Origin: a virus
DNA: 43,428 bases
Strand: one strand, 5' to 3'
IMG/VR virus record: IMGVR_UViG_3300045988_029530
Coordinates: 1 to 43,428 of that record
Each line of letters begins with the position of its first letter. Within the stretch, counting starts at the first letter, position 1. Shown piece after piece: positions 10,344-29,836 of this stretch. The notes under the pieces were generated by a model, which searched no databases, was not told the DNA's origin, and saw only the letters and a list, made by a program, of their open reading frames with translations. The translations under genes and the position numbers were made by a program.

Positions 10344-10344
10344 C

Positions 10345-10524: not shown

Positions 10525-10563
10525 GGTGCGCCCTCCCCAATATTGTAGTTATTCTGTTTTGAC

Positions 10564-10598: not shown

Positions 10599-10757
10599 TA
10601 TCGCAGATACCCGCAAATCACTTCGTCTGCTGCACCTCTATCGTAGCAGGAATGCCGGAGTTTGTCCACGCGCAGTTCTGCTTTTCCCGCGCAGCCGCTG
10701 CAAAAACAGCCTGCAGCCGCTGCGAATTCCGCACAAGCACGAAAGGAGCCGTGAGAA

Positions 10758-11342
10758 ATGACCGCATACCAGAAGCTGTACCCCAAATTTGAATCCTACC
10801 CCGAGGCCGTCCGTCAGGCAAAGCGTCTCAAGGGCCTCACCATCGACGCGCTGGTCGAATCGGCCGGCGTTTCCTATTCCTCCGTGTCCCGCCTCTGCGA
10901 CGGCACGCAGCTCGATCCCAAGCTCTATAATTCCGTCGCTCTCTGCAAAGTCCTCGGTCTTTCCATGGACGAGATTTTCGGTCTATCCGCGTCCGAGGCC
11001 AGCGCCGAGGAATTGCAGGCGAAGCTCCACGCCGCCGAACTGGGAAACGCCCACCTTGCCGAGGAAAACAAGCGTCTGCACGAGGTCAACCGCCTCCGCG
11101 CCGAGCAGCTTGCCGCCCGCGCCCCCGTTATCTATATTCTTCTCTTTGCCTGCGCGCTCCAGTCCTGCGCCTTGATCTTTTATCTGTTCGTCGATGCGCA
11201 GATCAAGGATGCCGGCCTCATCCGCTTCGGCGATGTCGGCCTTGTCGCGTGGCTTCTGATCTTCCTTGTCCTCTCCGCAACTTCCGCCTGCGTCTGGGCG
11301 ACCATGCGCTTCGCCCGTAAATTCAGTAAAAAGGAGCGCTGA
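10758..11342 (+). CDS. Membrane-anchored XRE-family HTH protein (HTH + coiled coil + 2 TM)
   Basis: AAGGAG SD. HTH segment LTIDALVESAGVSYSSVSRLCDG. TM segments VIYILLFACALQSCALIFYLFV and LVAWLLIFLVLSATSACVWA. The stop lies 2 nt before the integrase ATG. Confidence 0.8.
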   Translation: MTAYQKLYPKFESYPEAVRQAKRLKGLTIDALVESAGVSYSSVSRLCDGTQLDPKLYNSVALCKVLGLSMDEIFGLSASEASAEELQAKLHAAELGNAHLAEENKRLHEVNRLRAEQLAARAPVIYILLFACALQSCALIFYLFVDAQIKDAGLIRFGDVGLVAWLLIFLVLSATSACVWATMRFARKFSKKER

Positions 11343-11344
11343 CC

Positions 11345-12397
11345 ATGTACATTCCCGAGCCGAAAGAAACCCCCTCCGGCTGGCGCATCCAGCTCCGCAT
11401 CAACGGCCAGTCCATCCCCGTTCTGGCCGACACGCCCAAGGAGTGCAAGCGTCAGGCCGCCCTTATCAAGGCGCAGGCGCAAGCCGCCGGAAAGCCCGTC
11501 AAAAAATGCGACCTCACCCTCTCTCAGGCCATTGATGCCTATATCGCCGCACTTCCCCCCGATATTTCTCCCGCAACGCTCCGCGCCTATCGCAACATTC
11601 AGCGGAAACGCTTCCCCGATCTCATGTCCATGCGTGTCGCTTCCATCACCCCCGCATCCTTGCAGCGTGCGCTAAATTCGGAGCTTTCCGCCTTTTCCCG
11701 CAAGACCGTCAAAAACGCCTTTGTCCTTGTCAAGACCGTGCTGGAGACAAACGGCGTAGAAGTTCCGAAGAAACTCGCCATCGACCGCAAGGAGCGCAAG
11801 AAAAAAGATCCCATCTGGCTCGAGCCGGACGAAATCAAGAAGTTTGTCGCCGCTGCGAAAGATGACCCTCTCTGCGTCCCCATGCTGCTTGCCCTTATGT
11901 CCATGCGTATCTCCGAGATCGATGCGCTCCGCTGGGAGAATATCCCCCCTCGCCCCGAATTTATCCGCACCTCCGGAGTTCGCATCATGGACGAGCATCA
12001 TCACTGGGTCACACTCGCCGAGCATAAAACAATCGAATCCGACCGCAGCGTTCCCTTGCTCATTCCCGAGCTGCGCGCCGCCATCGAGCGGGACCGCAAG
12101 CCCTCCGGCAAGTTGCTGGACATTCATCAAAACACCCTGCGAAGCGCCGTCGAGCGCACCTGTGCGCGTGCCGGTGTCAAGCGCGTCACCGTCCACCAGC
12201 TCCGTCACAGCTTCGCCTCCCTCTCCGCCCACCTCCGCATCCCCGCTGAAATTTCCATGGAGATCGGCGGCTGGAGCAATGACAAAACCATGAACGAGAT
12301 TTACACCCACATTGCCCGCTCCGACATTGAGCGCTATAAAAACGAAATGTGGAAATTCTACAATGATACTTCCTCCCAGCAGTCCGAGGATGCATGA
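11345..12397 (+). CDS. int: Tyrosine recombinase / phage integrase
   Basis: Catalytic-domain pattern: MRISEIDALRWENI (Arg), VHQLRHSFAS (HxxR), GGWSNDKTMNEIYTHI (Tyr). Confidence 0.92.
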   Translation: MYIPEPKETPSGWRIQLRINGQSIPVLADTPKECKRQAALIKAQAQAAGKPVKKCDLTLSQAIDAYIAALPPDISPATLRAYRNIQRKRFPDLMSMRVASITPASLQRALNSELSAFSRKTVKNAFVLVKTVLETNGVEVPKKLAIDRKERKKKDPIWLEPDEIKKFVAAAKDDPLCVPMLLALMSMRISEIDALRWENIPPRPEFIRTSGVRIMDEHHHWVTLAEHKTIESDRSVPLLIPELRAAIERDRKPSGKLLDIHQNTLRSAVERTCARAGVKRVTVHQLRHSFASLSAHLRIPAEISMEIGGWSNDKTMNEIYTHIARSDIERYKNEMWKFYNDTSSQQSEDA

Positions 12398-12649
12398 GCA
12401 TTCCCATAAGCATTTACTGTTCCCGAATCCGATATTTTTCTTCCCCTTGCCTACTATTTTATTCCCATATTTGAAACATCTGAGCACCGTCTTTCCCTTG
12501 CAAATAAAGGAAAGCCCTTGCAAACGTACTGTTTGCAAGGGCCGATAAAATCCATTCGTAAGACAGTTCGAAACACTCTTTTGCGCTTGTAAAACTCCAG
12601 TATTATCAATGTTTTTCTGGCGATACAAGCAATTTCATAAGCATTTACT
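12398..12649. other. Candidate attP region: AT-richer spacer with direct repeats and CCCTTGCAAA motifs
   Basis: CATAAGCATTTACT occurs at 12405..12418 and 12636..12649. CCCTTGCAAA occurs directly at 12495..12504 and 12515..12524 and inverted at 12532..12541. The region lies between the integrase and the convergent moron cassette. Confidence 0.45.
12500..12542 (-). terminator. Intrinsic terminator ending the minus-strand transcription series (12-bp stem plus U tract)
   Basis: GCCCTTGCAAAC-gtact-GTTTGCAAGGGC (12514..12542). On the minus strand it is followed by UUUCCUUUAUUU. Confidence 0.7.
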
Positions 12650-15379: not shown

Positions 15380-15419
15380 GGGTCACTTATGGGTCATTTA
15401 GGGGTCACTTGCGGGTCAA
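15380..15419. repeat. Four GGGTCA(Y/A) motifs phased at exactly 11 bp (iteron-like array)
   Basis: GGGTCAC at 15380, GGGTCAT at 15391, GGGTCAC at 15402, GGGTCAA at 15413. The last one overlaps the stop codon (15416..15418) of the giant gene. Confidence 0.9.
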
Positions 15420-18400
15420 CTCCACGGCATCATCCACCAGTCATAGCTTTTGTATTCCTGCCCCATGATCCAGTCCTTTTGTTCGGCGGTCAGGTTTAGG
15501 CTGTCGATCAGCTCGATGACCTTTTCCTTTCTGCTTCCGGAGATCGCCTTGCCGTTCTCGTCCTTGTCGGATTCCAGTTTCCCGACGGCCATGCGGAACT
15601 CTGTGTAGGCTTTCGCCGGGATACCTTCCTCCTGCGCCGCCTTGAACTTCTTCGCGTCCCCTTCTCCTGTGTAGACCGCACCCAGCGCCGCATACGCCTC
15701 CTTGTCCGAAAGACCGGACTGCATGATAGCCTGCGCCTTGAACGTCTGGTTCAGGTCGTTCTCTCCCGCGAGAGCGCGTGCTTTCTTTTCGACCTTCAGC
15801 GCATTGTTTTGGCTCACGCCCGCTGCGGTCATTTTGTTGTAGAAGCTCGCGGACTGCGGCACAAGCGCCTCGTTGATTGCCTCGCGGTTCTTCCCGGAAT
15901 ACTTCTTTCCGTCCAGCCAGTTTGCAAACTCCGCCGCCCACTCGCTGGCCTTGGCCCCTGCGCTCAGCTCGCCGCGCTTGTCGAGGATTTCGGAAATATC
16001 CTTCCACTTCATTCCGGCGTCGAGCAGTTTGTCAATTGCGTCGTCGTTGTAGTGGCTGACCATTTCGCCGTAGATGCTTGCTTTCTGCCGGTCTGTCAAG
16101 CCCTCCTGTGCCGCAAGCTCGGCGCGTGCCGCCTTGCGTCTGGCTTCCTTCGCCTGCAATCTTGCTTTTTCCTCGGCCTCGGTCTCGTTTTCCTTCTCCT
16201 TCGGCACGTCGATTGCCATCTGCGCATCGTCCATCCGCATCATCAGGCCGTAGAGCATATAGCCGTTCACGCCCTCGTCCCGCAAATCCATCCAGAGCTG
16301 CGTCTGGTCGGCGTCCAGCCCGTAGCTCTCCCCGGCGTAATACCGCTTTGCTTCCGGTGTCGCGTTCACGCCGAACAACACCGTCCGGATTGCATTGCCC
16401 ACATCGTCCGTGTCGATGGCGTAACGCAGGCGTTTTTTGTCTCCGTATCCCTGCATTTTTCCGCCCTCGATCAACGCCTTGATGCCGAAGCCGGTTTTCT
16501 GTAACTGGTTGCCGCCCGGCACCAGCAGCGCCGCCGCCTTTACCGCTGCCTCTGCCGAGTCTCCCGAGAAGACACCGTTTTCCTTCCACGATTCAAACAC
16601 GTCCCTGAACTTTGTGATGATTTCCGTGATCGGCATGTTCCGGTCTCCCGTGCCGATCATTGCCGAGAAGTTGGAGAGCATCGGAACGTCGTCTATGATA
16701 TTCCCGAGCGTTGCATCCATCGCTTTCCACGTATCAAATTTCCGGCCTTCCTTCGGGACATCCTCAAAAATCTCTTTCCCGCCGATCTCCATCGTCACCT
16801 TGTTGATAAGGCCCTTGATGTAGTCGTTCGTCGGCAGTCCCTTGCCCGAGGCCACAAAGTTTGCAGTAATGCCCGCGATGTCCAGCGGCACCGGCGTTCC
16901 CCCGTACCACTCGTCCGTCAGCCGGTTCACTATGAACGCAACGGCCAGATACCCGAGAATTTGCCCGATCAATTTGAGCGTTGCAGCTTTCTTTCCGTGC
17001 TCCTTCACCGTCTCTCGGTATTCTCTCGCTGTTTCAAACAGCATACCGTCCAGCGATCCATAGGCTTCTTCGCTGAATTGATGCATCAGCTTGTCCACAA
17101 GGTTTTTGCCATAGAATGCAGTTGCTCGTTCGCCCTTTGCCCTGCTCGACATGGTCCGCCTTCCAAAACGGTTCGACATCGTCATGGCTTCTTCATGGCT
17201 CATTCCCTTTAGTACGGACTCAATATACATGCTTCTTGCCGCCAACGTTGCTACAAACATGTCCATTGCACCGATTGGCCCATACAGAGTATCCAGATAC
17301 GCCTCTCCTGCTCCTTTTCTTCTGTTTTCCACGCCGCGCCTGTTGGTCAGGAAGCTGCTTTCCAGCCTGAACAGATCGAGCTTGTGCGGGATACACATCT
17401 CACGCAGCGCCGTCATAATCGCTCTTTTCTTCCTTTTCGTCCAGATGGTTGCGATCTGCCCGCACTGCGACAACACAGAAGAAAAATTTCCCGCCACTCT
17501 GGAAATGGCAAACAGGCCGACAATCTTGTTTCCCGTGTTCAGTATCTCTCGCCCGCCGTCGTATTCCATGCCTCGGTCGCCTCCGTACTGCTTGTTTGCA
17601 ATGATGTTCGTGAAGTTCGTCACCCACTGCGCAAAGTTGGTGTACCGCGTGTTGAACTCGTTCGCCTTGACGGCCTCTTCGATCATTTTTTCAAACTCGT
17701 TCTCGACTTCCTTTGCGGTGATTTCAGAGATGCTCTTCTCCTTCAGCTTTCCTTTTGTCTGCAACCACTTTGCCTTTTCCAGTGTGTCGCCGCGGCGGAT
17801 TCGGTCAAAGATTTCGTCCAGTGAGGCCTTTGTGTTTCGTTTGGCTCCTGCGTGCAGATAGCTTTCCAGCCCGCGCAGCTTCACAATATCTCCCGTGTGG
17901 AAAATCACATCCGCGACGCTGTCAATGTATTTTTCGGTTGCCGCAACGATGTCATAGTCCGTCCGGAATGAATTGCGCTTCATGAAGAACGAAACCCATG
18001 GTTTTTTCGGCTTGAATTCCTGTGTCTGTCCGGCGATCTCCGTCGGCAGTGCATGAAGCTCCTCCTGCTTGCTGAAATTTTCAAGTCCGACGACGGATAG
18101 AATTTTCTCGAAGCCCTTCAGCTTGTTGTTGAAGCGCCCGTGCGGTGTGTAGCCCAGCACCTTTCCGATCGGCTCCATGCCGTAGGCCGCAAGCAGCTCG
18201 TTCAGCGCCGGGTAGATATCATCGTACCATTGCCGGTAAACCGGTGCGGCGTTCTTCGTGATCGTCTTGTCTATCTTCTCGTCATTCTCTGCCGCTTTTC
18301 TGATATAGAGGTCATAGAACAGCCCCTCCTGAACCGCGCTGAATTTCATTTCCTTTGAAATGTCCTCCAGCTTTTCGCCGCTCAAGGCTCTCTGCGCCGC

Positions 18401-21400
18401 CGCCAGAATGTCCTTTGATCTCCGGTTGTCCTTCGCCCGCTGCTCCGCGCCCTCGGTGTCCAGCATAACGTGAACGTACTGCGATTCCTCCTTCGTCAGC
18501 TTCCGCCGTTTTCCCTTGCTGTCCTCAAATTCTTCAAGCTTATCCCTTTGCGCAGTCTTCCATCGTATGCTTTCCGCAGTATTTTCCCCGATGTCATAGA
18601 TATATCTCTGGTTCAATTCCTCTCCGAGTTCATCGCCAAACAGCCGGTATATCAGTATTTCCGGTGCCGTCAGGTTCATTCTTTTCAGCGGCATATTTTG
18701 GAACAGCTTCGGATTTGCCTGAAGCTCCAGCTCTGTCGGGATGGATTCCATCGCCATATCCAGCGTTGCCCTGTTGATCGCGCGTTTCCGCTTCTCCAGC
18801 AGATTTTCCCCCTGCATTCTCTGGTTTGCATACAGGTCGGAAAGCTCCTTGACGGTTTTGTAGGCCATATTGCTTTCGTCAATATCAGCCATGGTTTTCC
18901 GGCCGGCCGCAATTTGCTGTGCAAGGAAGATTTCATCGTCATTCGGCCTTTTATCCTTGATATAGCGGTCAATTCTCACATCGGTGTTCCGTCTGCCCTC
19001 TGTCTCTGCCAGAATCTGCGGCGCAGTCTGGAAGTTCACAATCGTTCCGTGGATTTTGATTCCCATTTTCTCCATGGCCGGGCTTCCCTTGAATTCCTTA
19101 ATCGGCACGCCCTCAAAGTAAACCGGTCTGTTCTCGTGCTTCATGGCCTCCATCCGGTCTTGGATCGTGATCTCCGCCGCCTTGATCTTCTGCGCGGCCT
19201 CGCTCGCCTTGCCGTCCTGCTTGCCAAGCCTTGCCGTCTGCTTTGCCGTCCATGTGCCGTCTCTTCGGGTTTGCAGCTTCCACACCTTTCCCGTGGCGCT
19301 TTCAAGCAGCTCCAGAGCCTCCTTTGGCTCCAGCTTGGTCTGCGACGAGCGCATCGGGTTCACGCTGTCATAGAGCAGTCCGACCTCGCGCAGGGCGTTG
19401 GTTCTGCTGTGCTTCCGAAGCCATTCGTCCCCGGCTTCTCTCAGGCTTTCGCTTCTCTCCTGCTCATATTTTTGCGCGGCCTGTCTTGATTTCTCCGCAC
19501 GTTCCTCCGCCACCGGCCGCAGATCGTTTGTCTCTCTGCCCTCCGTCTGGCCGTCGTACCACTCGTAGAATGCCCCAAGATCCTCTGCGTCCGCCGCGTC
19601 CTCCAGCTTCTCCTGCGGCATACTCGCAAGCAGAGCCGCCGTCTCCTGCACGCTCGGCTGATACTTCGGTTCCACCGCCGTCAGCAGCTTCGTTTCCATG
19701 TCCTTCACGCTGGAAAGGCCGGTCTCCTTGTTCGTGAACAGCACCGTGAGCATGCCCTTCCTCGTGCTCTTGTCCAGCACAAGGCCGTAGTTGCCCATGT
19801 CTGCCGCCTTGACCCACGTCCGCAGGGGATACACCTGTTTCCCGTTCAGGTAGGGGAAGCCGCGCTTCTGCGCCGCCGCCTCCGAGATCGTCCACGGCTC
19901 CACAACGCCCTCGGCCTTTTTCGTCGGCTGCACGCCGTCCGCCTCGCGGAGGATCGATTCCAGCCGTTCGTCCGCTTCCGCCTTGGCGGCCTTGTCCTGC
20001 GCGATTCTCGCGTCCCGGCCTGCCTTTTCTGCGTAGCTGTTCAGCAGCCTCTCAAAGGTCGTCCTCTGGTATTCCGTCTGCTCGTCCACGGTCATTCCAA
20101 AGCGCTTTTCGTTTTCCTCCATGGCCTGCCGGTAGGGCAGCTTCGTGTCCATGCCCTTGTCGGCCATCTCCGCCATCCGCCGCAGCATCTCCGTCATGTC
20201 GTAGGTGTCCGGGAATGCGCCGGGGTACTGCTCTGCCAGCTCCTTGTAAAGCTGGTCGATGCCCTGCTTGCCCTCGTCCTCCACAAAGTAGAACTTGTGC
20301 CGTCCCATGGCGCGCTTCTTAAAGCTGTTCCAGTCGTCCCCGAATTCCGTCCTGACCCACTCCGGCACGAATACCTTCTGCCCGTAGATCGTGTCTCGGA
20401 TTTCTTTGTAATAGTCGTCCGCTGGCATCGTCTCCGTCCCGAGGTTCATCACCGCTTCAAACAGGTCGTCCTTTTCCGCTTTCAGCAGCTTCACGCCCTG
20501 CTGCATTTCAAGCATCGGCGTTTCCAGCAGCCCGTTTAATTCCTTGCTGTCGTAGCTCTGGATGTTGAACAGCCTCCGCATGCCGCTTGTCAGGTCGCGC
20601 TTATATCGCTCCTGTGCCTTTTCCTTCTCCTGCTCCAGCTTTTCCTGCGCGGCGGTCAGCTTGCTTTCCGCCCGCTGCACCTTTTCCTCCGGTGAGAGGG
20701 AAAACCGCTTCTTCGGCTCCAGCAGCTTCTCGGCCTTGGCCTCCGCCTCCTGCCGCGCCTGCTCGTTTCCGGCCTTGTATTCCACCACGTTCAGGCCGTT
20801 CATTTTCAGCTTTTCCACAAGCCACCAGTCCACGCTCGACGGGATCACCGCCGCCATGTTCTCAAGGTGCGCATTGTTGTTCCGCGCGTCCTCGTTCTTC
20901 ACGATCAGCGACACGTCGCCCGCGCCCTCGGTGTTCGTCAGCAGCTCCTGCACCGGAATCCTCGCCGACCCATACAGCGCCTCCAGATCATCCTCGTTCA
21001 GATTCCGAATGGTCGTGAGATTTTCATTTTCCCTCTTGAAATTCTCTGCACTTTGTGCTACACTGCTCCACGAGGAAGCATTGTTTGTTATGAGCGAGCC
21101 CCTCCCATTCTGGGCTGAGGGCACAACGCCGTCTGCAATGCTTCCTTTGTCTATTTTGCGAACATTGTTGATGTCATACAGAATATTCCTGTCATTTCCT
21201 CTGGCAATGTTCAGTTTCGCAGAATAGATATTCCCCTCCATGTCTTGAATATATGTTTTTCTATACTCCCATCCTCTGCTGTCCATCCACTGATGCGTAT
21301 GTTCATCGGTGGCATTTTCATGTCTGGACGTTTCCAGAAGTTCAGAAAGCTGTACAACCGCAAGCGCTCTTGCGTTGTCCCCTGTGTAGCGCGCCAGTTT

Positions 21401-24400
21401 ATCAATCACCTTGTGGTTGTTATTCGCACCGTCTTTTCTTACGCGGTCATTTTCTCTTGCCAGATAGATTGTTTCTTCGTTTCCGCTTTCATCAACCGTC
21501 TGCAATGTTTTCCCCGCAAGGTTCTCGTATACGAATTTTCCGAGTGCCTTCCCCCAGTTTCGCGGGCTTACTCCGTCAAACAGTTTCGTGTCCAGCACCA
21601 CGCCGATGCCGTAATCCTGTTTTTCGCCTTTGATCTCCGCAATGGAATAACCGTTCCCCGTGTCCTCCGTCAGCAGTGCTCTGTCCCATCCGAGGTCGGG
21701 CATTTTGTTTTTCCGTTCCTCAGCGGTCAGCTTTCTGCGGCCGGCCGTCTCTCTGGCCTCGATCTCTCCTGCGGAATTGATGTATTGCCCCAGATAGACC
21801 TCGCCGGGGTTTTCCATCTGCCGTTTCAGATCAAGCAGCTTCCCGAACCACTCCTTCGGATAGAGCTTTTCATAGAGCCTGTCGTGCTCCGCGTCCATCC
21901 GGTCGTATTTCTCCGTGTCTCCCGGCTTTTCGGAGTAGAACAGGCGTTCCAGCTCCCCGTCGATCTCCTGATAGCGGATATAGTCGTTCTGTTCTTCCTT
22001 TGTCAGGCCGTTCAGAATGTCGCTGTACTCCCGCTGCAAGCGCTCCTGCAACCTGTCTCCGCTTTCATAGTCGCGCCGCGCCCAGTATTCCGGGCTTGTC
22101 CCGCCCTGAAATCCCTCGTATTTCTGGATGATGTGCTGAATCTCGTGCAGCAGCGTCTCCGGCCCCTTGCCGAACAGGCTGTCGGAGAGAATAATCGCGC
22201 CGTTTCTTTTGTCAAATTTTCCCTTCACGCCGGGATCCAGCTTTTCAAAGCGCACGCTCGTGTGCCGCAGCAGAGGATACGCCTCATAGAGTTCGTCGTG
22301 CTTCAGGAAGTCCTGAAGCTCGTATTTTTTCTCCCATACCCTGTCGCTGTATTCCTCCTGAAGCGCTTCCATTTCCGCTTCCTCTGCCTCTGTCAGCGGT
22401 TCTCCGCCCTTTTCAAAGCTGTCGCCCCATTTGTCTGTCAGTTCTTCCAGTCTGCGGTATCTCGGCTCGCCCAGCAGCCTTGCGTCCCCGTTCGGTCGGA
22501 ATTCCGCCTTGCTGTCGTCCACCTCAAACCGCCACTGGCCGTCCGCACCGCGAATCCATCCGGTTTTCCGCCAGATTTCCTCTCGGCTTGCGCCGTCCTC
22601 CTCCATGGCCTCCGCAAGCGCAAGGTTTTTGGAGCTGGCCGTCTTGGCCTTCGGGCCTGCCATGCTCGCCCTTTTGCCGCCCTCTCGGGCGGTTTTTTCG
22701 TTTCCGTCGCTGTCCTGCGTCCGGCGCACGGCCTGTGAGACCTCTGCCGTCGGTGCGTTGCTCTCCCGCTGGCTTTGCATGCCGGCCGCATGCGTCCGCA
22801 TTGCGTCGATCAGCTTCTTGAAGCTCCGATTGACAAAGCGGTTCAGCCCCGCATAGGCGTCGGCCAGAATTTCCTCATAGACCGCCGTGTCGCTGTCATA
22901 TGCCCCTCGGTACGCCTTCATGTACTGCTCGACGATCTCGGTGTATTCCTCCGCCGTCATGTTTTCGCTCACGCTTTCCAGCGCCGTTACAAGGTCAACC
23001 TCCGCCGCGTGCACCTTCGCGTGGAAAAGCTCATGCTCCATCAGCACCTCCGGCTCGTAGATGCTCGAAACGCTCACAAAAATGCGCCCGCTTTCTGCAT
23101 CAAACATCGCGTCCGTGTTGTGGAACTCTCCGTCCTCGCCCTTGATGGACATCGTGCCCACCACGAAGGTTGTTTTCACGCCCTGCTCCTTCGCCTCGCG
23201 CTGCGCCTGCTTCATGGCCTGCGTGTACTTCCGCACCGGCACGATTCCGACCATCACGTCAGGGTCGCCGTCTGCGGTCAGCTTGTCCATGCCGGTGTCC
23301 AGCACGGTTCCCTTGAAGCGCTCTACTCTTTCGTTGAGCTTCTGCCGGCGAAGATTTTCGCTTTCATTTCCTCCAGCTTCGCCCGTTCCTCCTCGGTCAG
23401 CGGTGATTCGTGATCCGCTTTCGACCACGCCGCCAGTCTGTCCTTCGGCACCCACACGCTCATTCCGCTCTTGGTTTTCATTAACACTCTGGGATTGCTC
23501 ATTGCTCATTCCTCCTTCGGTTTCCTGCGCCGCCGGCGCATTGATTTCCTCCGCCTGCACCGGCTCAACCGGTGCAGCTTCCTCCTCTGCCGCGCTCTGG
23601 TCGGTCTCCTGCGCCGCCTGCGGCGTTTCCTGCGTGGTTTGCTCTGCGGTCGGTGTGTTTTCCTGTGCGGCGCTTTCTGCGGCTCTCTGCGCCCTCTCTG
23701 CGGCTCTCGCGCTCTTTTCCGCGTCCAGCACATCCAGATAGCTCTGTGCAGATTCTGCCACGAAGATGTCTCCCGCGTCCGTGCTGCTTCGCAGGGCCTC
23801 TATGGTCGCCCGCTGCGTGATGATCTGAATGTCCAGCGCCCGGTCTGTCATCAGCGCCGCATTGCTCTGCTGCTCTGCGCGGATGATGTTCTGCATCTCC
23901 ATGTCCACAAAGCCGCCGTTCGCCTGCGGCGGCGTGTACCGCTCGAAGCTCTCCGAGATATTCTGTGCGCTTTCCAGCCGGTCGGCCAGCGTGTTGAACT
24001 CCCGCACGATGGTGTTCCACTCGCTCTTGGCTTTCTTGATCTGGCTCTCGCTCCATCCGTTGAAGCGCATCAGGCTTTCATCGCCCGCATAGTATTGCGC
24101 CGTGTACTGCGCCATGGTGCCGTAGAGCACGTCCAGATTGCTCTGCGCCTGCTTGCCGAAGCGCGTGATCACCTTCGACTGCACATAGCTTTTCGCTCTG
24201 GCCGTCAGGTCAACAATGTCCTCCGGTGCGCTCATTACCATCGAAAGCAGCACGCCCACGGTAAATTCGTCCACCAGTTCCTTTGCCGTCAGGTCGCTCT
24301 CGCCCGTCAGCGCGTAATCCAGCGCCGCGCCCGCAACGGCCGATGCCACCTCCTCCAGACCCTCGCCGATGCGGTCGAACACCTTACTCGATACGATCTT

Positions 24401-26731
24401 CCGGATGGTCTCGTTGTCCGTCAGGTCGGTGATATATTTGGAGATCCGCCCCGCGTTTTCCGGGTCAATAATCGGGTTGCCGCCGAACAGCCCGTTCGTC
24501 CCGTACTCGATCAGGCCGCCCGCGATCAGCTTCACGGCCCGCTCCGGCATGCTTTTCCCCGCATCCTCCGCTTCGCCGTAGCTGTTCAGCGCCGCGTTGG
24601 CCGAGATCAGCACGTTCGAGCTGTTTTTCATCAGGCTTGCCATCTGTCCGGCAAGCTTCGTGTAGCCGCTTACCCTTTTCTGCGCATTGGCAAGGCTCGA
24701 GGCGTACTTTCCGCCCTGCGAAAGCTGCGAGAGCGCCGCGTTCCCCGCGCTGATCTGTCCGGCAATCGCGCCCGCTGCGGCCATCTCCAGCGCCGCCTGC
24801 GTCAGGTCGCGCGTCATGTTCGCCGTCCATTGCGTGAATTTGCTGCCGTTCTGCGTCAGCTCCGAGGCGTACCGTCCCGCCTCATATTCTCTCTGTTTTC
24901 CCGCCTGCCAGTCCTTGTTTTCATAGTCTATGCCCTGCTGGCCGCCCTCAACAAAGTAGTTTCCCACCGGATTTTCCGCAAGGCCGAACAGGTTCAGCGT
25001 CTTGCCTGCCGCCTTCGTGATGTAGCCGAGGCCGCGCATAAGCACCTGCTCCATGCCGCCCGCGTATTTGGTCATCACGTTTTCCATCGCGTTTACCGCG
25101 CCGGTTCCCGCCATGTCCGCATAGGTCTTTGCGTCGATTTCCCGGTACATTTCCAGTGCCGACTGCATTCCGGCTTCGTTCGCGTTCAGGCCGTTTGCTT
25201 CTCTGGTCGCCCGCAGCTCTGCGGCATTCGGCGCGTCCGCAATCTTCTGCATGAATGCGTCATACTGCTCCTGCGTCATTTCCGTGTTGGCCAGATACTC
25301 CGGCAGCACCTCCTCGCTCAGGAACGTCACCGCTCTGCGCTCCGCGTCCGAGTTTCCCCAGTCTGTTCCGCCGTGGTCAAAGCCCATCTTTCCCAACAGT
25401 TCATCCACCGGCGTGTATGCGATGTTCTCCCGCGTCAGGCTTCCGCTCTGATACCGGAATTCCTTCATTGCGTCGCCCTTGTTCGGCAGGATGCTCTTTG
25501 CCTCCTTGCGAATGTCCTCTATGCCGGAGTTCGCCCACATCATGTCGGATTTCGGCAGGCCGGAAAGATACTCTTTTTTCCACTGCTCCACCTTGTCCAG
25601 CAGCGCCTCGTATTCGCTCTCCGTGCATTTCCCGCTGAGCGCGAGGTAATTCAGCCGTTCGGCGATCTCCGTAAAGATTCCCGCGTGAATGTTCTGCGCC
25701 TGACTGTCCGACACGTCTCCGTGCGTGAATGCCTTCAGCTCCTCGAAGTCCTGCCGGATGTAGTCCTCGTGCTGCTGCACGCTCTGGTTCTGCCAGTCCG
25801 CCTTTTCGGCCTTTCTCTCCATGCCGGCCGCAAGCGTGCTTTTCTCCTGCTGGCCCAACCGGCGGTCGTAGGCCGAACCGTATCCGATCTGCACCCTTCC
25901 GTCCGCCGTGTATCTCGGGAGTTGCATTCTTCCGCTGATCGCCATATCCGGCATGGCCTTTCCGGTCAGCGGATTCGTGAGCTGTGCGTCCTTCGCGGCC
26001 GTCTGCATGTCCTCCAGCGCTTTCCGGTATTCCGCCATCCGCGTCATGAGCGTCTGCGCCGCAGGCGTGTTTTTCTTTTTCAGGTAGGCTTCGATCTCCT
26101 GTGCCTCGGTCAGGAGCTTCTGCGCCCCGCTGACCCATTGGTTCGCCCGTTCCGGCTCCGACATTCCCGCCGTGGTCTCCTGCGCCTTTTTGAAGTACGC
26201 ATCCGCCTCCGTCTGGAACCGCGCAATGCCGCTGCCGAGCGCCAGACTGCCCTCGTCGTCCTCTTGCCCGTTCATTGCGTTCTGGTAACGCTTGAGCTGC
26301 ATTTCCCACGCATTGAGCTGCTCCTGATACCCCTGCGCGTCCTCGCCCATCACGTCTGCATATCGGTTGAAATAGTCGCGTTCTTTCTCCACACTTTGCA
26401 GCATCGTGCCCACGCGCTCTTTCCACCCGCTGCCGCTTGCGCCGATGCGGTGCTTTCTCTGGAAATATCCGTCCATGCCGCCAAACAGCGTTCCCATGTC
26501 CGTCTGCATCTGCGACCAGCCCGAGGCGCTCACGCAGCGCTCGCGTTCCGCTTTCAGTGCATTTATTTGCTGCCTCTGTATCTGGCTCTGCATCTGCGCT
26601 TCATTTTTTCTGTACTCCGCCATGGTCGCCGGATAAGAAAAGCCGCCGGAGACCGCAGGGGTATTCCCTGCGGTCTGCCGGTTTTCTTCTTGCTGCTTTC
26701 TGTATTCAGCCATTGTTTTCGGATAACTCAT
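15416..26731 (-). CDS. Giant 3771-aa polyvalent-type virion (ejection / MuF-position) protein with two zincin-like HExxH motifs
   Basis: 11,316-nt ORF with TAAGGAGG SD. HELFH at aa 1233-1237 (nt 23021..23035). LLHEIQHIIQKYEGF at aa 1527-1541 (HEIQH at nt 22133..22147). Acidic Glu/Gln/Ala/Thr linker at about aa 1005-1130. Hydrophobic helices at about aa 3069-3096 and 3251-3270. It lies right after the portal and a 333-aa gene. Confidence 0.85.
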   Translation of the reverse strand: MSYPKTMAEYRKQQEENRQTAGNTPAVSGGFSYPATMAEYRKNEAQMQSQIQRQQINALKAERERCVSASGWSQMQTDMGTLFGGMDGYFQRKHRIGASGSGWKERVGTMLQSVEKERDYFNRYADVMGEDAQGYQEQLNAWEMQLKRYQNAMNGQEDDEGSLALGSGIARFQTEADAYFKKAQETTAGMSEPERANQWVSGAQKLLTEAQEIEAYLKKKNTPAAQTLMTRMAEYRKALEDMQTAAKDAQLTNPLTGKAMPDMAISGRMQLPRYTADGRVQIGYGSAYDRRLGQQEKSTLAAGMERKAEKADWQNQSVQQHEDYIRQDFEELKAFTHGDVSDSQAQNIHAGIFTEIAERLNYLALSGKCTESEYEALLDKVEQWKKEYLSGLPKSDMMWANSGIEDIRKEAKSILPNKGDAMKEFRYQSGSLTRENIAYTPVDELLGKMGFDHGGTDWGNSDAERRAVTFLSEEVLPEYLANTEMTQEQYDAFMQKIADAPNAAELRATREANGLNANEAGMQSALEMYREIDAKTYADMAGTGAVNAMENVMTKYAGGMEQVLMRGLGYITKAAGKTLNLFGLAENPVGNYFVEGGQQGIDYENKDWQAGKQREYEAGRYASELTQNGSKFTQWTANMTRDLTQAALEMAAAGAIAGQISAGNAALSQLSQGGKYASSLANAQKRVSGYTKLAGQMASLMKNSSNVLISANAALNSYGEAEDAGKSMPERAVKLIAGGLIEYGTNGLFGGNPIIDPENAGRISKYITDLTDNETIRKIVSSKVFDRIGEGLEEVASAVAGAALDYALTGESDLTAKELVDEFTVGVLLSMVMSAPEDIVDLTARAKSYVQSKVITRFGKQAQSNLDVLYGTMAQYTAQYYAGDESLMRFNGWSESQIKKAKSEWNTIVREFNTLADRLESAQNISESFERYTPPQANGGFVDMEMQNIIRAEQQSNAALMTDRALDIQIITQRATIEALRSSTDAGDIFVAESAQSYLDVLDAEKSARAAERAQRAAESAAQENTPTAEQTTQETPQAAQETDQSAAEEEAAPVEPVQAEEINAPAAQETEGGMSNEQSQSVNENQERNERVGAEGQTGGVVESGSRITADRGGTGEAGGNESENLRRQKLNERVERFKGTVLDTGMDKLTADGDPDVMVGIVPVRKYTQAMKQAQREAKEQGVKTTFVVGTMSIKGEDGEFHNTDAMFDAESGRIFVSVSSIYEPEVLMEHELFHAKVHAAEVDLVTALESVSENMTAEEYTEIVEQYMKAYRGAYDSDTAVYEEILADAYAGLNRFVNRSFKKLIDAMRTHAAGMQSQRESNAPTAEVSQAVRRTQDSDGNEKTAREGGKRASMAGPKAKTASSKNLALAEAMEEDGASREEIWRKTGWIRGADGQWRFEVDDSKAEFRPNGDARLLGEPRYRRLEELTDKWGDSFEKGGEPLTEAEEAEMEALQEEYSDRVWEKKYELQDFLKHDELYEAYPLLRHTSVRFEKLDPGVKGKFDKRNGAIILSDSLFGKGPETLLHEIQHIIQKYEGFQGGTSPEYWARRDYESGDRLQERLQREYSDILNGLTKEEQNDYIRYQEIDGELERLFYSEKPGDTEKYDRMDAEHDRLYEKLYPKEWFGKLLDLKRQMENPGEVYLGQYINSAGEIEARETAGRRKLTAEERKNKMPDLGWDRALLTEDTGNGYSIAEIKGEKQDYGIGVVLDTKLFDGVSPRNWGKALGKFVYENLAGKTLQTVDESGNEETIYLARENDRVRKDGANNNHKVIDKLARYTGDNARALAVVQLSELLETSRHENATDEHTHQWMDSRGWEYRKTYIQDMEGNIYSAKLNIARGNDRNILYDINNVRKIDKGSIADGVVPSAQNGRGSLITNNASSWSSVAQSAENFKRENENLTTIRNLNEDDLEALYGSARIPVQELLTNTEGAGDVSLIVKNEDARNNNAHLENMAAVIPSSVDWWLVEKLKMNGLNVVEYKAGNEQARQEAEAKAEKLLEPKKRFSLSPEEKVQRAESKLTAAQEKLEQEKEKAQERYKRDLTSGMRRLFNIQSYDSKELNGLLETPMLEMQQGVKLLKAEKDDLFEAVMNLGTETMPADDYYKEIRDTIYGQKVFVPEWVRTEFGDDWNSFKKRAMGRHKFYFVEDEGKQGIDQLYKELAEQYPGAFPDTYDMTEMLRRMAEMADKGMDTKLPYRQAMEENEKRFGMTVDEQTEYQRTTFERLLNSYAEKAGRDARIAQDKAAKAEADERLESILREADGVQPTKKAEGVVEPWTISEAAAQKRGFPYLNGKQVYPLRTWVKAADMGNYGLVLDKSTRKGMLTVLFTNKETGLSSVKDMETKLLTAVEPKYQPSVQETAALLASMPQEKLEDAADAEDLGAFYEWYDGQTEGRETNDLRPVAEERAEKSRQAAQKYEQERSESLREAGDEWLRKHSRTNALREVGLLYDSVNPMRSSQTKLEPKEALELLESATGKVWKLQTRRDGTWTAKQTARLGKQDGKASEAAQKIKAAEITIQDRMEAMKHENRPVYFEGVPIKEFKGSPAMEKMGIKIHGTIVNFQTAPQILAETEGRRNTDVRIDRYIKDKRPNDDEIFLAQQIAAGRKTMADIDESNMAYKTVKELSDLYANQRMQGENLLEKRKRAINRATLDMAMESIPTELELQANPKLFQNMPLKRMNLTAPEILIYRLFGDELGEELNQRYIYDIGENTAESIRWKTAQRDKLEEFEDSKGKRRKLTKEESQYVHVMLDTEGAEQRAKDNRRSKDILAAAQRALSGEKLEDISKEMKFSAVQEGLFYDLYIRKAAENDEKIDKTITKNAAPVYRQWYDDIYPALNELLAAYGMEPIGKVLGYTPHGRFNNKLKGFEKILSVVGLENFSKQEELHALPTEIAGQTQEFKPKKPWVSFFMKRNSFRTDYDIVAATEKYIDSVADVIFHTGDIVKLRGLESYLHAGAKRNTKASLDEIFDRIRRGDTLEKAKWLQTKGKLKEKSISEITAKEVENEFEKMIEEAVKANEFNTRYTNFAQWVTNFTNIIANKQYGGDRGMEYDGGREILNTGNKIVGLFAISRVAGNFSSVLSQCGQIATIWTKRKKRAIMTALREMCIPHKLDLFRLESSFLTNRRGVENRRKGAGEAYLDTLYGPIGAMDMFVATLAARSMYIESVLKGMSHEEAMTMSNRFGRRTMSSRAKGERATAFYGKNLVDKLMHQFSEEAYGSLDGMLFETAREYRETVKEHGKKAATLKLIGQILGYLAVAFIVNRLTDEWYGGTPVPLDIAGITANFVASGKGLPTNDYIKGLINKVTMEIGGKEIFEDVPKEGRKFDTWKAMDATLGNIIDDVPMLSNFSAMIGTGDRNMPITEIITKFRDVFESWKENGVFSGDSAEAAVKAAALLVPGGNQLQKTGFGIKALIEGGKMQGYGDKKRLRYAIDTDDVGNAIRTVLFGVNATPEAKRYYAGESYGLDADQTQLWMDLRDEGVNGYMLYGLMMRMDDAQMAIDVPKEKENETEAEEKARLQAKEARRKAARAELAAQEGLTDRQKASIYGEMVSHYNDDAIDKLLDAGMKWKDISEILDKRGELSAGAKASEWAAEFANWLDGKKYSGKNREAINEALVPQSASFYNKMTAAGVSQNNALKVEKKARALAGENDLNQTFKAQAIMQSGLSDKEAYAALGAVYTGEGDAKKFKAAQEEGIPAKAYTEFRMAVGKLESDKDENGKAISGSRKEKVIELIDSLNLTAEQKDWIMGQEYKSYDWWMMPWS

Positions 26732-26743: not shown

Positions 26744-27745
26744 TTAGTTCAGCTTTACCGTGGTCTTGTTTCCGATGCCCGGCTTACTGCCGCCGCCCCC
26801 CTTGCCGGAGTAGCCGCCGTTGTAGCTGTTTCCTCCGCTCCCGCCGTAGGTCGTCATGGTCTTAAGCCACTGCAAGAGTTCCTCCTCGTCGTATCCAAGG
26901 TCGCCCCAGCTCCTGATATCCTGAATAACAGATTTCGGGCCGTACTTGTTTGCTTTCTTCAGTAGCGTCTGCCGCACATCGTCTCCCACGGTCTTTAATT
27001 TTCCTCTGCTCGAGCTTCCCCCGCCGGAATAGCTTCTCGAGTACGCTGCACTCTGCGCTGCCGAGGCGATTTTCTGCGCGTCTCCTGCCGAGATTCCCGC
27101 CGCCGCCAGAAGGTCGCTTGATGGCATCTGTCCGTTCTGCAGCAGCGTCAGCGCCAGCGTGTAGGAATCGCTTCTTGCCTGCTGCTCCTTCTGCCATGCG
27201 AATTGATCCTCCTGCATCTTCCTGCTCCACTCCTGATAGGCCTGATCCGCCGTCTGCGCGCCCACCTGCACGCCGAGGATCTGCGCCACGCGGTCGTCCG
27301 CTGCGCCCAGCTCCTTCCAGCGCGTCATGGCCGCGTCGATCTGCTGCTGGTAGAGACTCGGCAGCGTCTCGGCCAGTTTGCTTTTCTGGTAGTCTGCCGC
27401 CTGTGAGGCCGCTGCCACCGCCTGCGTCGAGGGAATGCCGCCCGTCATCGTCGCGTACTGTCCCAGCGTGTCGCGCCCGGTTCTGTCCGCCTCCCGCAGA
27501 TACGCCTTTTTGTAGGCCGAGATCACGTCGTCCCCCAGCAGATAGTCCACCGTCGATTTCTGCGTTCCCATCACCTTGTCCAGCTCCGCCGCATAGGGGC
27601 TGACTCCCTGCGCCGTGGGCTGCGCTCCCGTCACGCTGTTCAGCTCCGCCACATACGGGTTGACCGGCTGGGTCTGCGCAGCAGGCTGCAGCAGCTTTGC
27701 CAGCTCCTCGGCTGACAGCTTCGTGTAGTCAATTTCGTTTGCCAT
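26744..27745 (-). CDS. Hypothetical virion-module protein (333 aa, Gln/Ala-rich with a Gly-rich tail)
   Basis: GGGAGG SD. Located between the portal and the giant gene. C-terminus GGSGGNSYNGGYSGKGGGGSKPG. Confidence 0.75.
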   Translation of the reverse strand: MANEIDYTKLSAEELAKLLQPAAQTQPVNPYVAELNSVTGAQPTAQGVSPYAAELDKVMGTQKSTVDYLLGDDVISAYKKAYLREADRTGRDTLGQYATMTGGIPSTQAVAAASQAADYQKSKLAETLPSLYQQQIDAAMTRWKELGAADDRVAQILGVQVGAQTADQAYQEWSRKMQEDQFAWQKEQQARSDSYTLALTLLQNGQMPSSDLLAAAGISAGDAQKIASAAQSAAYSRSYSGGGSSSRGKLKTVGDDVRQTLLKKANKYGPKSVIQDIRSWGDLGYDEEELLQWLKTMTTYGGSGGNSYNGGYSGKGGGGSKPGIGNKTTVKLN

Positions 27746-27748: not shown

Positions 27749-29836
27749 TTAACCTCCCATCTCCGTCGGCTTCTGCATCGCCATTTGTGCCTGCATCATC
27801 AGCATCTGCTGCTGAAGCTGCTCGTCTCTCCGCTGCTCCATCAGGGTCTTGATCTTACCCGCGCCCGGGAAATGGTCCTCCTCCATCTTCGTCCAGTAGA
27901 GGATCAGCGTGTCAATGCTCTTCGGGTCTCCGAAAGCGCCGGACTGCAGGTGCGCCGTGGTCTCCTGCCACATTGCCTCGCGGTTCGTGGCAAGGCCGGA
28001 CGCATCGTCGCAGGAGAACAGGAACTGGTCGTTCCAGTAAAGCTCCCCGGCATCGTCCATTCTCAAAAATGCGTAGGAATTCCATTCCTCATATTCCTGA
28101 TTTCCCTTCTCGTCCCGGAAGCGCAGCGGCCGCTTCTCATCGCAGTATGCAAGCTGGTTTTTGAACATCCGCTCGAAGATTCTCGCGAATGCCGCTTTCT
28201 TCAGCACGCGCTTACTCTCCAGGCGTCCCGCCGACTGCGCCGCCGCAAACTCCTTTGCCTTGCCGGACTGCGCCGTCGGGTCTGTCCGTCCCTGATAGCT
28301 GTCCGTCATGCCGATCAAGCGTCTGGATTCCTCGTAGGCCTGCGTCAGCATCGCCATGTTCGGGGTGATGTCCGCCTGAAAGTCTCTCACCGCAATCAGG
28401 CTTGCATCCGCCGCATTGCCCACATACCAGATACCGTTGTCCTGCGGGTCAACTCTCAGGTGCGTCGAATCCGGCAGTGTGATCTTGCTGCCCGCCTTCA
28501 TCAGCCGGTCTATGGTTTTCTGCTCCAAGCGGTTGATGGTGTTCTGCTGGTCTGCGATCTTGTCGCAGTCCGATTCACCTAAGAATTTTCCGTGCGCCGT
28601 GACGTTCCGCCGCAGCACCGCCATGAAAATATCCGGCTTATAATACGGGATTTCAATTTCCGCGTCTCCCGGTTCCTGTTCCGTCGGCATTTCCTGCACT
28701 GCCGGCGGCTGCATTTCCGGCGTCAGCATCGTCTGCATCGCCGGAACCTCCTGCGCGCCGAGGCTTCCCATCGGTTCCTGCTCCGTCGGCATTCTTGTCG
28801 GCTCCTGCGGCATTGCCTGTTCTTCCGGCTGGTAGAAGATTCTCCCGAATCCGTGCTCCGCTCTCAGCCGCTCCACGATCATCGGGTCAATGCCCAGCGT
28901 GTCCAGCTCACTCAGCCGCACCCTGCGCGAGGTCTCCACCACGTCCTCCCAGCTTCTCGACCCGCAGAAGCTGCACACGCCCTTTCTCGGCTTCCGCTTC
29001 TCCGCATCGTCCGGGTATGTCCCGTCCTGCGTCGGCTCGCTCAGGTCTATGTATGCGCTGTCCGCTTCGGTCTGGCCGCACTTCTTGCAGCGCCGCAGGA
29101 TGCGTGCCTGACAATCCGTCAGGTTCTCGACCTCCATATCGCCCACCCACGCAAAGCGGCCTACGCCGCCCTCGTCATTCCGGTATTCCGCGATCTTCAG
29201 CGTGACCACGTCCTCGGCGTTGCTTTCCTCCGCACCTCTGACCTCCGGCATTTCCTCCTGAAGGTCTCCCACGTCCACGCCGTAGCGCCTGCGCAGATAG
29301 TCCTTTGTCACCGGAATCAGCCAGAAGTAGTAGGCCATTTCGTCCACTTCCTTCACGCCGTCCTGCGGGATAAACTGCATCGGGTGGACGCATTTCAGCG
29401 TGTTCTCGCCCACGGTCGTGTGCGTCCGCTTGCTCGTGTCCCACTCCGGCAGATACAGGCAGCCGCCTTGCTTATAGGTGATGCGCTCGGATTCGTCGTT
29501 CAGCTCCTCCGTCGGCAGCCGGTCCAGCTCGTTTCGCAGCATGTTTTCGATCATCCGCGCCAGGTGCTCGTCCTCGCGGCGCATCGGCGTGACCTTCGGC
29601 ATCGGGATAGAGCTGTCGATCTCCGATTCGATGTTTTCTGCCGTGATGTTCCAGACGTGGCTTGTCTCCTTCTGGTATCCGTACTTCCTGTCGTTCTCCG
29701 TCAGCGGTGTCAGCGTGCGGTCGCCCGCATACTGCGCTTCGCGCCGGTGCATTCTCTCGCGCTCTGCCTCGTAGGCCGTCAGGTTCTTTTCCAGCCTGCT
29801 CTGCCACAGGCTCACGCCGTCTTTTCTGTCTTTCAT
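27749..29836 (-). CDS. Portal protein with an inserted zinc ribbon and a Pro/Gln/Glu/Met-rich segment
   Basis: 695 aa immediately downstream of TerL, with AAGGAGG SD. The size, position and helical C-terminal half fit a portal. The insertion is about aa 242-392 (CKKCG...CSFCG, then QEPTRMPTEQEP...). Confidence 0.75.
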   Translation of the reverse strand: MKDRKDGVSLWQSRLEKNLTAYEAERERMHRREAQYAGDRTLTPLTENDRKYGYQKETSHVWNITAENIESEIDSSIPMPKVTPMRREDEHLARMIENMLRNELDRLPTEELNDESERITYKQGGCLYLPEWDTSKRTHTTVGENTLKCVHPMQFIPQDGVKEVDEMAYYFWLIPVTKDYLRRRYGVDVGDLQEEMPEVRGAEESNAEDVVTLKIAEYRNDEGGVGRFAWVGDMEVENLTDCQARILRRCKKCGQTEADSAYIDLSEPTQDGTYPDDAEKRKPRKGVCSFCGSRSWEDVVETSRRVRLSELDTLGIDPMIVERLRAEHGFGRIFYQPEEQAMPQEPTRMPTEQEPMGSLGAQEVPAMQTMLTPEMQPPAVQEMPTEQEPGDAEIEIPYYKPDIFMAVLRRNVTAHGKFLGESDCDKIADQQNTINRLEQKTIDRLMKAGSKITLPDSTHLRVDPQDNGIWYVGNAADASLIAVRDFQADITPNMAMLTQAYEESRRLIGMTDSYQGRTDPTAQSGKAKEFAAAQSAGRLESKRVLKKAAFARIFERMFKNQLAYCDEKRPLRFRDEKGNQEYEEWNSYAFLRMDDAGELYWNDQFLFSCDDASGLATNREAMWQETTAHLQSGAFGDPKSIDTLILYWTKMEEDHFPGAGKIKTLMEQRRDEQLQQQMLMMQAQMAMQKPTEMGG

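Follow-up and report, generated by a model that had tools for sequence, protein, structure and literature searches.

A giant polyvalent protein with exchangeable cassettes and two zincin-like blocks in a temperate, podovirus-like gut phage

What kind of protein takes up a quarter of a phage genome as a single chain, and what could it do there? The question is raised by the window analyzed in this work, the whole 43,428-nt stretch of IMG/VR virus record IMGVR_UViG_3300045988_029530 (positions 1 to 43,428), in which one open reading frame (ORF) encodes a protein of 3771 amino acids (aa), hereafter the giant ORF. A sequence-only reading of the window had placed this ORF in the position of a MuF or ejection protein, and had suggested that its product may combine penetration of the cell envelope with injected effectors. 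On the evidence of its domains and gene neighborhood, the giant ORF is a genuine phage-type polyvalent protein, and comparison with sister phages shows that its cassettes have recently moved between diverged backbones by recombination. We also find it fairly probable that the protein is made late, packed in the capsid, and ejected into the host as a 423-kDa polyvalent chain, with the DNA or ahead of it. The features of the giant ORF are as follows.

15416..26731, minus strand: giant ORF, 3771 aa, 423 kDa, isoelectric point 5.2, 4 Cys; an unbroken single ORF in 7 full-length relatives
25112..26731, minus strand: N-terminal lineage-specific region (aa 1-540), in ~5% of family proteins, close relatives sharing the portal
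24152..25114, minus strand: N-core (aa 540-860), conserved Gly/Ala-rich part of the scaffold, EGxEE invariant; carried by 209/239 long family proteins
23342..23719, minus strand: acidic Q/E/A/T-rich linker (aa ~1005-1130), recognized by composition; model confidence (pLDDT) <50 at its C-terminal edge
22697..23314, minus strand: zincin-like block 1 (aa 1140-1345), predicted beta-beta-beta, HELFH helix, then EEILAD helix (nt 22859-22876)
20708..22681, minus strand: exchangeable cassette region (aa ~1351-2008), swapped for ART-PolyVal, MuF_C/PBECR, LPD3 or unannotated insertions in close relatives
22499..22666, minus strand: LPD23 domain (aa 1356-1411), Pfam PF18838, E 4.6e-22
21632..22414, minus strand: zincin-like block 2 (aa 1440-1700), HEIQH and GEIEAR (nt 21752-21769), DUF6782-type putative metallopeptidase
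21152..21628, minus strand: module 3 (aa 1702-1860), recurrent 159-aa alpha+beta domain
19982..20710, minus strand: mid-core of the scaffold (aa 2008-2250), carried by 130/239 long family proteins; also in P0004 and P0005
15419..19534, minus strand: C-terminal all-alpha module, or C-module (aa ~2400-3771), the family-defining scaffold of ~1200-1370 aa

The two ends of the window carry an exact 119-bp direct repeat (1-119 and 43310-43428), which makes it a complete genome of 43,309 bp, either assembled as a circle or with redundant ends. The giant ORF starts with ATG, has zero internal stops in the translation of 15416..26731, and accounts for 26.1% of this genome, in agreement with the ~26% given by the sequence-only reading. 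It also lies, as described there, downstream of the portal gene (27749-29836) and of a 333-aa gene (26744-27745). Its codon-usage score per codon, 0.53, is that of the portal and in line with the neighboring genes. An assembly chimera, which had been named as one of the findings that would undo this interpretation, is excluded because full-length ORFs of 3633-3953 aa recur at the same locus in 7 other IMG/VR contigs. More IMG/VR contigs have partial copies, and 4 metagenome samples are represented in all. The composition of the protein is peculiar in two respects. The previously noticed acidic Glu/Gln/Ala/Thr linker is indeed there (aa 1001-1100 are 62% QEAT, with a net charge of -16). Cysteines make up 0.11% of the protein (4/3771 aa), versus 1.19% in 13 other genes of the phage pooled; the median is 0.04% in the family described below, the polyvalent protein gp47 of phage phi24B has 0.07% (2 in 2807 aa), and the 333-aa neighbor has none.

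Polyvalent proteins were defined as a class by Iyer, Burroughs, Anand, de Souza & Aravind (2017, J Bacteriol, PMC5512222). They carry at least two unrelated effector domains or large polyvalent protein-associated domains (LPD), and here we find LPD23, two zincin-like blocks, and module 3. They are also encoded among the late or virion genes of phages with portal and terminase, and in the window the order is TerL, portal, 333-aa gene, and giant ORF, a setting also found at the loci L022 and L028. The module starting GWIRGADGQWRFEVDDS corresponds to Pfam LPD23 (aa 1356-1411, E 4.6e-22), so the "large polyvalent protein" domains named in the sequence-only reading are now backed by a significant match, and relatives have ART-PolyVal, MuF_C, and LPD3 at this place. 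ART-PolyVal, MuF_C/PBECR, and LPD3 are signature polyvalent domains (PMC5512222). When the whole protein and its 520-aa tiles were searched against Pfam, PHROG, and NCBIfam, we obtained nothing besides LPD23, a sub-threshold DUF6782, and noise. The MuF assignment is not supported: Pfam finds no Phage_Mu_F domain in the giant ORF, whole or tiled, nor in the 333-aa gene. Sequence searches of the PDB with the whole protein gave no significant match, and neither did sequence or profile searches with the central region, the C-module, the zincin blocks, the N-core, and the 333-aa protein, nor Foldseek searches with AlphaFold2 (AF2) models of aa 1130-1900 and aa 2572-3771.

Direct evidence of cassette exchange comes from the comparison with the 7 full-length relatives. 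The first 1350 aa are 50-98% identical to these proteins. The next segment, aa 1351-1700, is 96-100% identical in L015, L016, L017, L019, and L020, and 80-92% in L018, while its flanks are only ~50% identical in most of those relatives, and it is entirely replaced in the closest relative, L014. The third-codon identity of this segment to L016, L017, L019, and L020 is ~81-100% (at least 90% in most 50-aa bins), against 50-75% in the flanks. This high identity at third codon positions shows that aa 1351-1700 moved recently by recombination, and were not merely conserved by selection. Each of the next two segments, aa 1701-1900 and aa 1901-2008, is kept in some relatives and replaced or missing in others. 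In Pfam terms, the site holds ART-PolyVal, an ADP-ribosyltransferase, in L014, MuF_C/PBECR3, a domain of RNase type, in L015, and LPD3 in L017. Hence, cassettes have recently moved by recombination between diverged backbones.

Two short peptides on the minus strand, KRASMAG (aa 1353, 22655-22675) and KKRFSLS (aa 2007, 20693-20713), bracket the cassette region, and peptides resembling "...VK-x-x-[FY]-S-[FLV]" follow module 3 in distant homologues. The bracketing peptides are an unproven lead, and could mark a cleavage site, a recombination joint, or a domain edge. Module 3 itself is present in ~45/294 collected proteins, sometimes in two copies. It is possibly LPD3-like: hhalign gives a probability of 49% (E 1.8e-4 over 104 columns) against a shallow LPD3 profile of 5 sequences, and Foldseek matches an LPD3 model of BFVD with E 0.018 and probability 0.94. 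The proposal that aa 1705-1862 resemble a nuclease-type module was not borne out, since the hhalign probability is 0.8% against a MuF_C/PBECR profile built from L015 and its homologues, and Pfam has no match.

The two HExxH motifs are exactly where they had been read, HELFH at aa 1233-1237 (nt 23021-23035) and HEIQH at aa 1529-1533 (nt 22133-22147). Composition predicts 0.03 such motifs in the protein, and two or more have a probability of 0.0003 (20,000 shuffles). In block 1, HExxH is intact in 179/186 ungapped homologues, and 53 aa downstream lies a helix with EExxAD, in which the second E is found in 189/189 and the D in 186/187. The AF2 model of this block has three strands, the HExxH helix, and more helices, which is the zincin order, at a pLDDT <50, a low confidence explained by the shallow alignment there. 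No Pfam family covers block 1, and its diverse versions gave only scattered sub-threshold matches to M78, Zn_peptidase_2, and DUF3810. Its best PDB profile match is IrrE (E 1). The family profile of block 1 also matches phi24B gp47 (E 1.5e-5).

Block 2 is always preceded by LPD23. Its HExxH is intact in 65/65 homologues and the GExEAR located 126 aa downstream in 69/69. The copy in the window matches DUF6782 with E 0.0036, under the Pfam cut-off, and 10/10 diverse versions match this "putative metallopeptidase" family (best E 3.4e-7). The AF2 model has a pLDDT of 75-94 and retrieves from BFVD "large polyvalent protein-associated domain" proteins of uncultured podo- and caudoviruses (E down to 3e-16). 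Both blocks thus show the gluzincin-type combination of a HExxH helix with a conserved downstream Glu. Judging from this conservation, the two motifs are very probably catalytic, in agreement with the sequence-only reading, which called them zincin-type.

The rest of the protein is a scaffold shared by a very large family. When aa 2572-3771 were compared exhaustively by phmmer with 1.84 billion representatives, clustered at 50% identity, at least 1949 clusters matched at E<=1e-3, of which 718 reached E<=1e-30. The C-module is nearly always C-terminal, in proteins of 1500-5671 aa, and family members commonly fill a fifth to a quarter of ~40-kb genomes. A profile search added 106 members, typically on contigs of 40-45 kb, with ART-PolyVal, MuF_C, LPD3, LPD23, PBECR3/5, SprT-like, or zeta-toxin domains. 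When the 12 largest members were scanned, ddrB-ParB was found in 5/12, along with SNF2 helicase plus Eco57I-type methylase, ART-PolyVal, PBECR3/5, and SprT-like domains. Few members are named, and the names they bear are "PolyVal ADP-Ribosyltransferase [Caudoviricetes sp.]" and "hypothetical protein". A search for the C-module in plasmids gave no match.

Iterative block profiles run on the 239 family proteins of at least 1800 aa separate the scaffold from the variable parts. The N-core is present in 87% of them, zincin block 1 in 77% (185/239), the mid-core in 54%, aa 2400-2600 in 56%, and aa 2600-3771 in 92-99%. The variable parts are aa 1-540 (~5%), LPD23 with zincin 2 (~20%), module 3 (16%), and aa 1900-2008 (8%). 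Three of 11 N-core members match phrog_22978, a family of unknown function, and none matches the PDB. Signs of exchange are also seen outside the cassette region. The stretch aa 2250-2400 (19532-19984, minus strand) is 76-98% identical in all 7 relatives, third-codon positions included, and is rare in the wider family (15/239 proteins); it looks like a second recently shared segment. In addition, aa 2401-3450 come as two deeply diverged alleles, the copy in the window being 30-45% identical to six relatives and 74-100% to L014, which points to whole-module replacement in the scaffold too. Two other homologues suggest decaying prophages. In L023 (3465-11496, NCBI draft GCA_001292545.1) the homologue is split into 1239 and 1410 aa by a coding-like gap of 79 nt, so that a frameshift is likely and we do not use this split as evidence for autonomous modules. 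In L024 (10001-11692, GCA_964328155.1) a 563-aa remnant lies beside a transposase in a bacterial genome.

The AF2 model of the C-module, built on an alignment of 34 sequences, is almost all helical (pLDDT 73, predicted template-modeling score 0.60). The sequence-only reading had named two hydrophobic helices in this part. One of them stands: aa 3249-3272 (nt 16916-16987) form the only strongly hydrophobic helix of the module, with a Kyte-Doolittle (KD) score of 1.85. The other, aa 3069-3096, stays below KD 1.5. The strong helix is followed by a YGGTP(A/V)P motif, and both are within the most conserved part of the family alignment. The tape-measure likeness once seen in the C-terminus did not hold up: Tape_meas_lam_C is matched with only E 0.81, no tape-measure protein (TMP) of PHROG is matched, and the all-alpha model has no PDB neighbor. 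At the other end of the chain, the motif SYP[KA]TMAEYRK is duplicated at the very start (aa 2-12 and 32-42, nt 26696-26728 and 26606-26638, minus strand), and its form YP[AK]T[FWM]xEY is kept in all relatives. A different motif, NPYVAELN / SPYAAELD, is duplicated at the N-terminus of the 333-aa protein. These duplicated motifs of the two proteins may be capsid- or portal-targeting peptides, and aa 1-540 are a candidate virion-targeting or anchoring part.

How could such a protein work? The phage is temperate and podovirus-like, and its host is a Gram-positive gut Firmicute (Clostridiales), given its gene content without detected tail-tube genes and the prophages found in Clostridiales metagenome-assembled genomes (MAGs). 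In the scenario we favor, it would produce the chain late. The lineage-specific N-terminus, perhaps with the 333-aa partner, would target the chain to the portal or procapsid, and the restriction of aa 1-540 to phages that share the portal fits docking to lineage-specific virion components. The chain would leave through the portal-tail channel as loosely connected "beads on a string", as for the virion RNA polymerase (vRNAP) of phage N4, and the long acidic linker and the low-pLDDT junctions fit such a loose connection. At the Gram-positive envelope, the C-terminal helical module, with its conserved hydrophobic helix, could serve as pilot or ejection part. Zincin 1 would then cleave the chain and free the cargo domains, which would hit targets of host defense or takeover. 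We therefore propose zincin 1 as the processing protease of the chain, a role that fits with its belonging to the scaffold and not to the cargo. MPTase is the commonest polyvalent domain and was proposed to process such chains into working units, with P1 DdrB cited as an example (PMC5512222). The dual role of envelope penetration and effector injection is in this sense plausible.

We infer packaging and ejection because of the gene position, the depletion in cysteines, and the precedent of phi24B gp47. L028 has TerL and, further along, a P22-type portal gene, a gene of 283 aa, the capsid gene, and three small genes, after which come the giant gene and then fibre-like genes. In P22-like podoviruses, the position that the giant gene has at L028 is the slot of the ejection proteins. 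The late genes of both L022 and phi24B end with the giant gene, next to the integrase side.

Several points weigh against this scenario. Packaging, ejection, and cleavage are proposed steps, and the putative pilot role of the C-module is read from its position and ubiquity. The module has no PDB neighbor by Foldseek (best E 0.9) or by profile, and thus no detectable relation to the ejection proteins of T7, P22, and N4, to the N4 vRNAP, or to tape-measure proteins. In the AF2 model, the single hydrophobic helix could be buried in the helical bundle. The zincin folds are predicted ones, since Foldseek finds in the PDB weak matches at best, those with better probability being minigluzincins (4jiu, 4jix) and SPRTN (6mdx), all at E >= 0.35, in addition to the low confidence of block 1. 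The K-x-x-[FY]-S-[FLV] peptides are not enriched family-wide (89 observed versus 87 +/- 8 in shuffles), and hence we do not claim them as a processing site. Finally, unlike most phage-type polyvalent proteins, the giant protein has no MuF or portal domain as an anchor.

The known systems offer partial parallels. Like the polyvalent proteins of Iyer et al., the giant protein is one chain of unrelated effector domains, encoded among late or virion genes and extensively mosaic. However, it lacks a MuF, portal, or DarA-type anchoring domain, and about two thirds of it are scaffold outside any Pfam, PHROG, or NCBIfam model. An experimental precedent concerns gp47 of the Stx phage phi24B, a 2811-aa polyvalent protein. 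Mass spectrometry shows gp47 to be abundant in virions, the cryo-EM map does not show it, and the authors propose that it is a capsid-packaged ejection protein (bioRxiv 10.64898/2026.04.10.717836). It shares with the giant protein the polyvalent nature, the large size, a temperate podovirus as carrier, the place of last late gene, the scarcity of cysteines, and two HExxH, one of which is that matched by the family profile of zincin 1. It differs by the lack of C-module and N-core, by its LPD1/5/38 domains, and by its Gram-negative host. Phage N4 packs its vRNAP, gp50, in the capsid and ejects it through a narrow channel in the form of loosely connected domains (PMC13434306). The vRNAP is also a single chain, of ~3500 aa, and N4-type proteins carry MPTase domains too, whereas we detect here no RNA polymerase (RNAP) domain and no partners resembling gp51 and gp52, in a temperate phage with a genome of 43 kb. 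The ejection proteins of T7 (gp14/15/16) and P22 (gp7/20/16) are comparable in their position in the P22-like module of L028, their largely helical nature, and the presumed crossing of the envelope. Yet, sequence, profile, and Foldseek searches reveal no similarity to them, and they are three separate proteins, as opposed to one fused giant chain with enzymatic cargo in a phage of a Gram-positive host. DdrB and DarB of P1 are head-internal, injected anti-defense proteins, and the C-terminal MPTase of DdrB is thought to autoprocess. The ddrB-ParB domain of the largest family members recalls DdrB, but the P1 proteins are separate, belong to a myovirus, and share no scaffold module with the family.

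Other explanations start from the same data. The zincins could instead serve in entry, by cutting the peptidoglycan cross-links or the surface proteins of the Gram-positive wall, in which case the giant protein would be mainly a wall-penetrating ejection protein. This would suit a thick-walled Gram-positive host and the location of zincin 1 in the conserved scaffold instead of the cargo, and the authors of the phi24B study proposed peptidoglycan degradation for the metallopeptidase of gp47 (bioRxiv 10.64898/2026.04.10.717836). We nevertheless think it unlikely, given that the blocks have no similarity to peptidoglycan peptidases such as M23 and M15, that they weakly resemble intracellular minimal zincins (IrrE/M78, SprT/SPRTN, minigluzincins), and that the phage has a separate endolysin (36379-37233). 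Alternatively, the polyvalent effector may not be packaged at all. It could work late, inside the producing cell or the lysogen, for example by excluding superinfection, by poisoning competitors, or once lysis has released it. The C-module would then be a cytoplasmic or membrane scaffold and not an ejection device. The giant gene is consistently found within blocks of virion genes on phage contigs of ~40 kb, a cost of 26% of the genome is hard to justify for an accessory factor, and the depletion in cysteines is shared with the virion-associated gp47. These points make the unpackaged effector quite improbable in our view, despite the lack of a MuF or portal fusion, the host-domesticated polyvalent proteins known in defense (Iyer et al., PMC5512222), and the remnant adjoining a transposase in a bacterial genome (L024).

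A purely structural role, as a tape-measure-like protein, fibre, or internal core in which HExxH is incidental, was one of the outcomes that the sequence-only reading had set against its own proposal. It would account for the long helical C-terminus, and for weak matches that we regard as noise (Tape_meas_lam_C at E 0.81 and, in BFVD, the TMP of a Bacillus phage with E 8e-4 and probability 0.30). It is largely refuted, and in our view very improbable, because both HExxH and their downstream acidic ligands are essentially invariant, enzymatic cassettes are swapped (ART, PBECR, ParB, SNF2-methylase), and no TMP or fibre match is significant. There is barely any chance, finally, that the giant protein hides a virion RNA polymerase comparable to N4 gp50 or to the giant crAss-like proteins. 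Its size and position do resemble those of the N4 vRNAP, and RNAPs of the N4 type also come fused to MPTase domains (Iyer et al., PMC5512222). However, no PDB chain is matched by sequence, N4 vRNAP included, Foldseek finds nothing for aa 1130-1900 and 2572-3771 (aa 1-1130 and 1900-2570 being covered by sequence only), there is no DxDGD-type motif, and a temperate phage with repressors and integrase has no need of an injected RNAP.

Polyvalent proteins as such are already known, their cargo domains (LPD23, ART-PolyVal, and others) are curated Pfam families, and phi24B gp47 is one experimental precedent for a giant polyvalent protein acting as a virion-packaged ejection protein. What appears new is a conserved scaffold of ~2500 aa without a MuF or portal anchor, in a very large and essentially unannotated family of gut phages and prophages, the direct evidence of recent cassette exchange among sister phages, and the Gram-positive setting. 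A bolder interpretation, which we hold tentatively and with some doubt, is that the scaffold (N-core, dedicated zincin, and C-module) is a previously unrecognized and very widespread platform with which temperate, podovirus-like phages of gut Firmicutes deliver effectors. The C-module would be a new ejection or pilot device suited to Gram-positive envelopes, and the built-in zincin would release hot-swappable anti-defense enzymes once inside the cell. If so, it would be a phage counterpart of the logic of polymorphic toxins and Rhs, with cassettes traded by recombination between co-circulating phages. If the chain is packaged and processes itself, the cassette slot would be a catalogue of injected anti-defense effectors and the scaffold a new protein-translocation device. 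The passage of DNA and proteins across the wall by short-tailed phages of Gram-positives is poorly known, as is the counter-defense of gut phages at the earliest moment of infection, and the family provides a defined system for both questions. At minimum, the C-module, the N-core, and zincin 1 merit family models, which would end the "hypothetical" labels.

The genome around the giant ORF has an unusual order. Nearly every gene is on the minus strand, in the order TerS, fibre-like 837-aa protein, BspA-type leucine-rich-repeat protein, endolysin, two PHROG genes of unknown function, major capsid protein, 780-aa ORF, TerL, portal, 333-aa gene, giant ORF, and a few small genes. TerS is thus ~10 kb away from TerL, with fibre, lysis, and capsid genes in between. 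The main features are the following.

41499-42098, minus strand: TerS
39041-41554, minus strand: fibre-like 837-aa protein, phrog_12105
37178-37969, minus strand: BspA-type leucine-rich-repeat protein, LRR_5, E 1.6e-46; adjoins the endolysin
36379-37233: endolysin, a separate gene
33444-34454: major capsid protein
31357-33699, minus strand: 780-aa ORF, phrog_511 "internal virion protein", E 4e-46; flanked by the capsid gene and TerL
27749..29836, minus strand: portal, phrog_156, E 2.3e-33
26744..27745, minus strand: 333-aa gene, Q/A-rich and Cys-free, between portal and giant ORF
11345-12397, plus strand: integrase
3188-4950, minus strand: DNA methyltransferase and PAPS-reductase-like gene, phrog_363 (E 4e-83) and adjacent phrog_424

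No tube, sheath, or tape-measure gene is matched among the ORFs scanned, which agrees with the earlier remark that none is visible as a separate gene. Lysogeny is indicated by an island on the plus strand (~8000-12600) with a GC content of 0.46-0.49 versus ~0.58, which carries the integrase, a phrog_5783 gene, and two genes resembling repressors. A gene for a replication initiator is present in the genome as well. A methyltransferase with a PAPS-reductase-like gene is a common anti-restriction or DNA-modification pair of phages. Prophage copies occur in MAGs of uncultured human-gut Clostridiales (3 MAG contigs in a scan of genome collections). A megablast of 19.6 kb against the GenBank phages gave no match, and tblastn with the portal and with the C-module retrieved only unannotated fecal fragments, with a portal identity <40%. 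These searches thus identify no isolated GenBank phage as a relative.

The 333-aa protein has no match in Pfam, PHROG, NCBIfam, or the PDB. The distant locus L028 has a weak homologue (E 0.001) directly before its giant gene, and the 333-aa gene is possibly a conserved partner of the giant protein. The 780-aa ORF overlaps both neighbors, so that its true start is probably downstream of the listed GTG; its homologues adjoin TerL in L028 and L023. The BspA-type leucine-rich-repeat protein is a possible accessory for host adhesion or receptor binding. Finally, the first 114 aa of the fibre-like protein are homologous to a stand-alone 125-aa gene of L028 (8431-8808), located two genes upstream of the giant gene, and by this sequence homology the 837-aa protein looks like a fused adaptor-plus-fibre arrangement.

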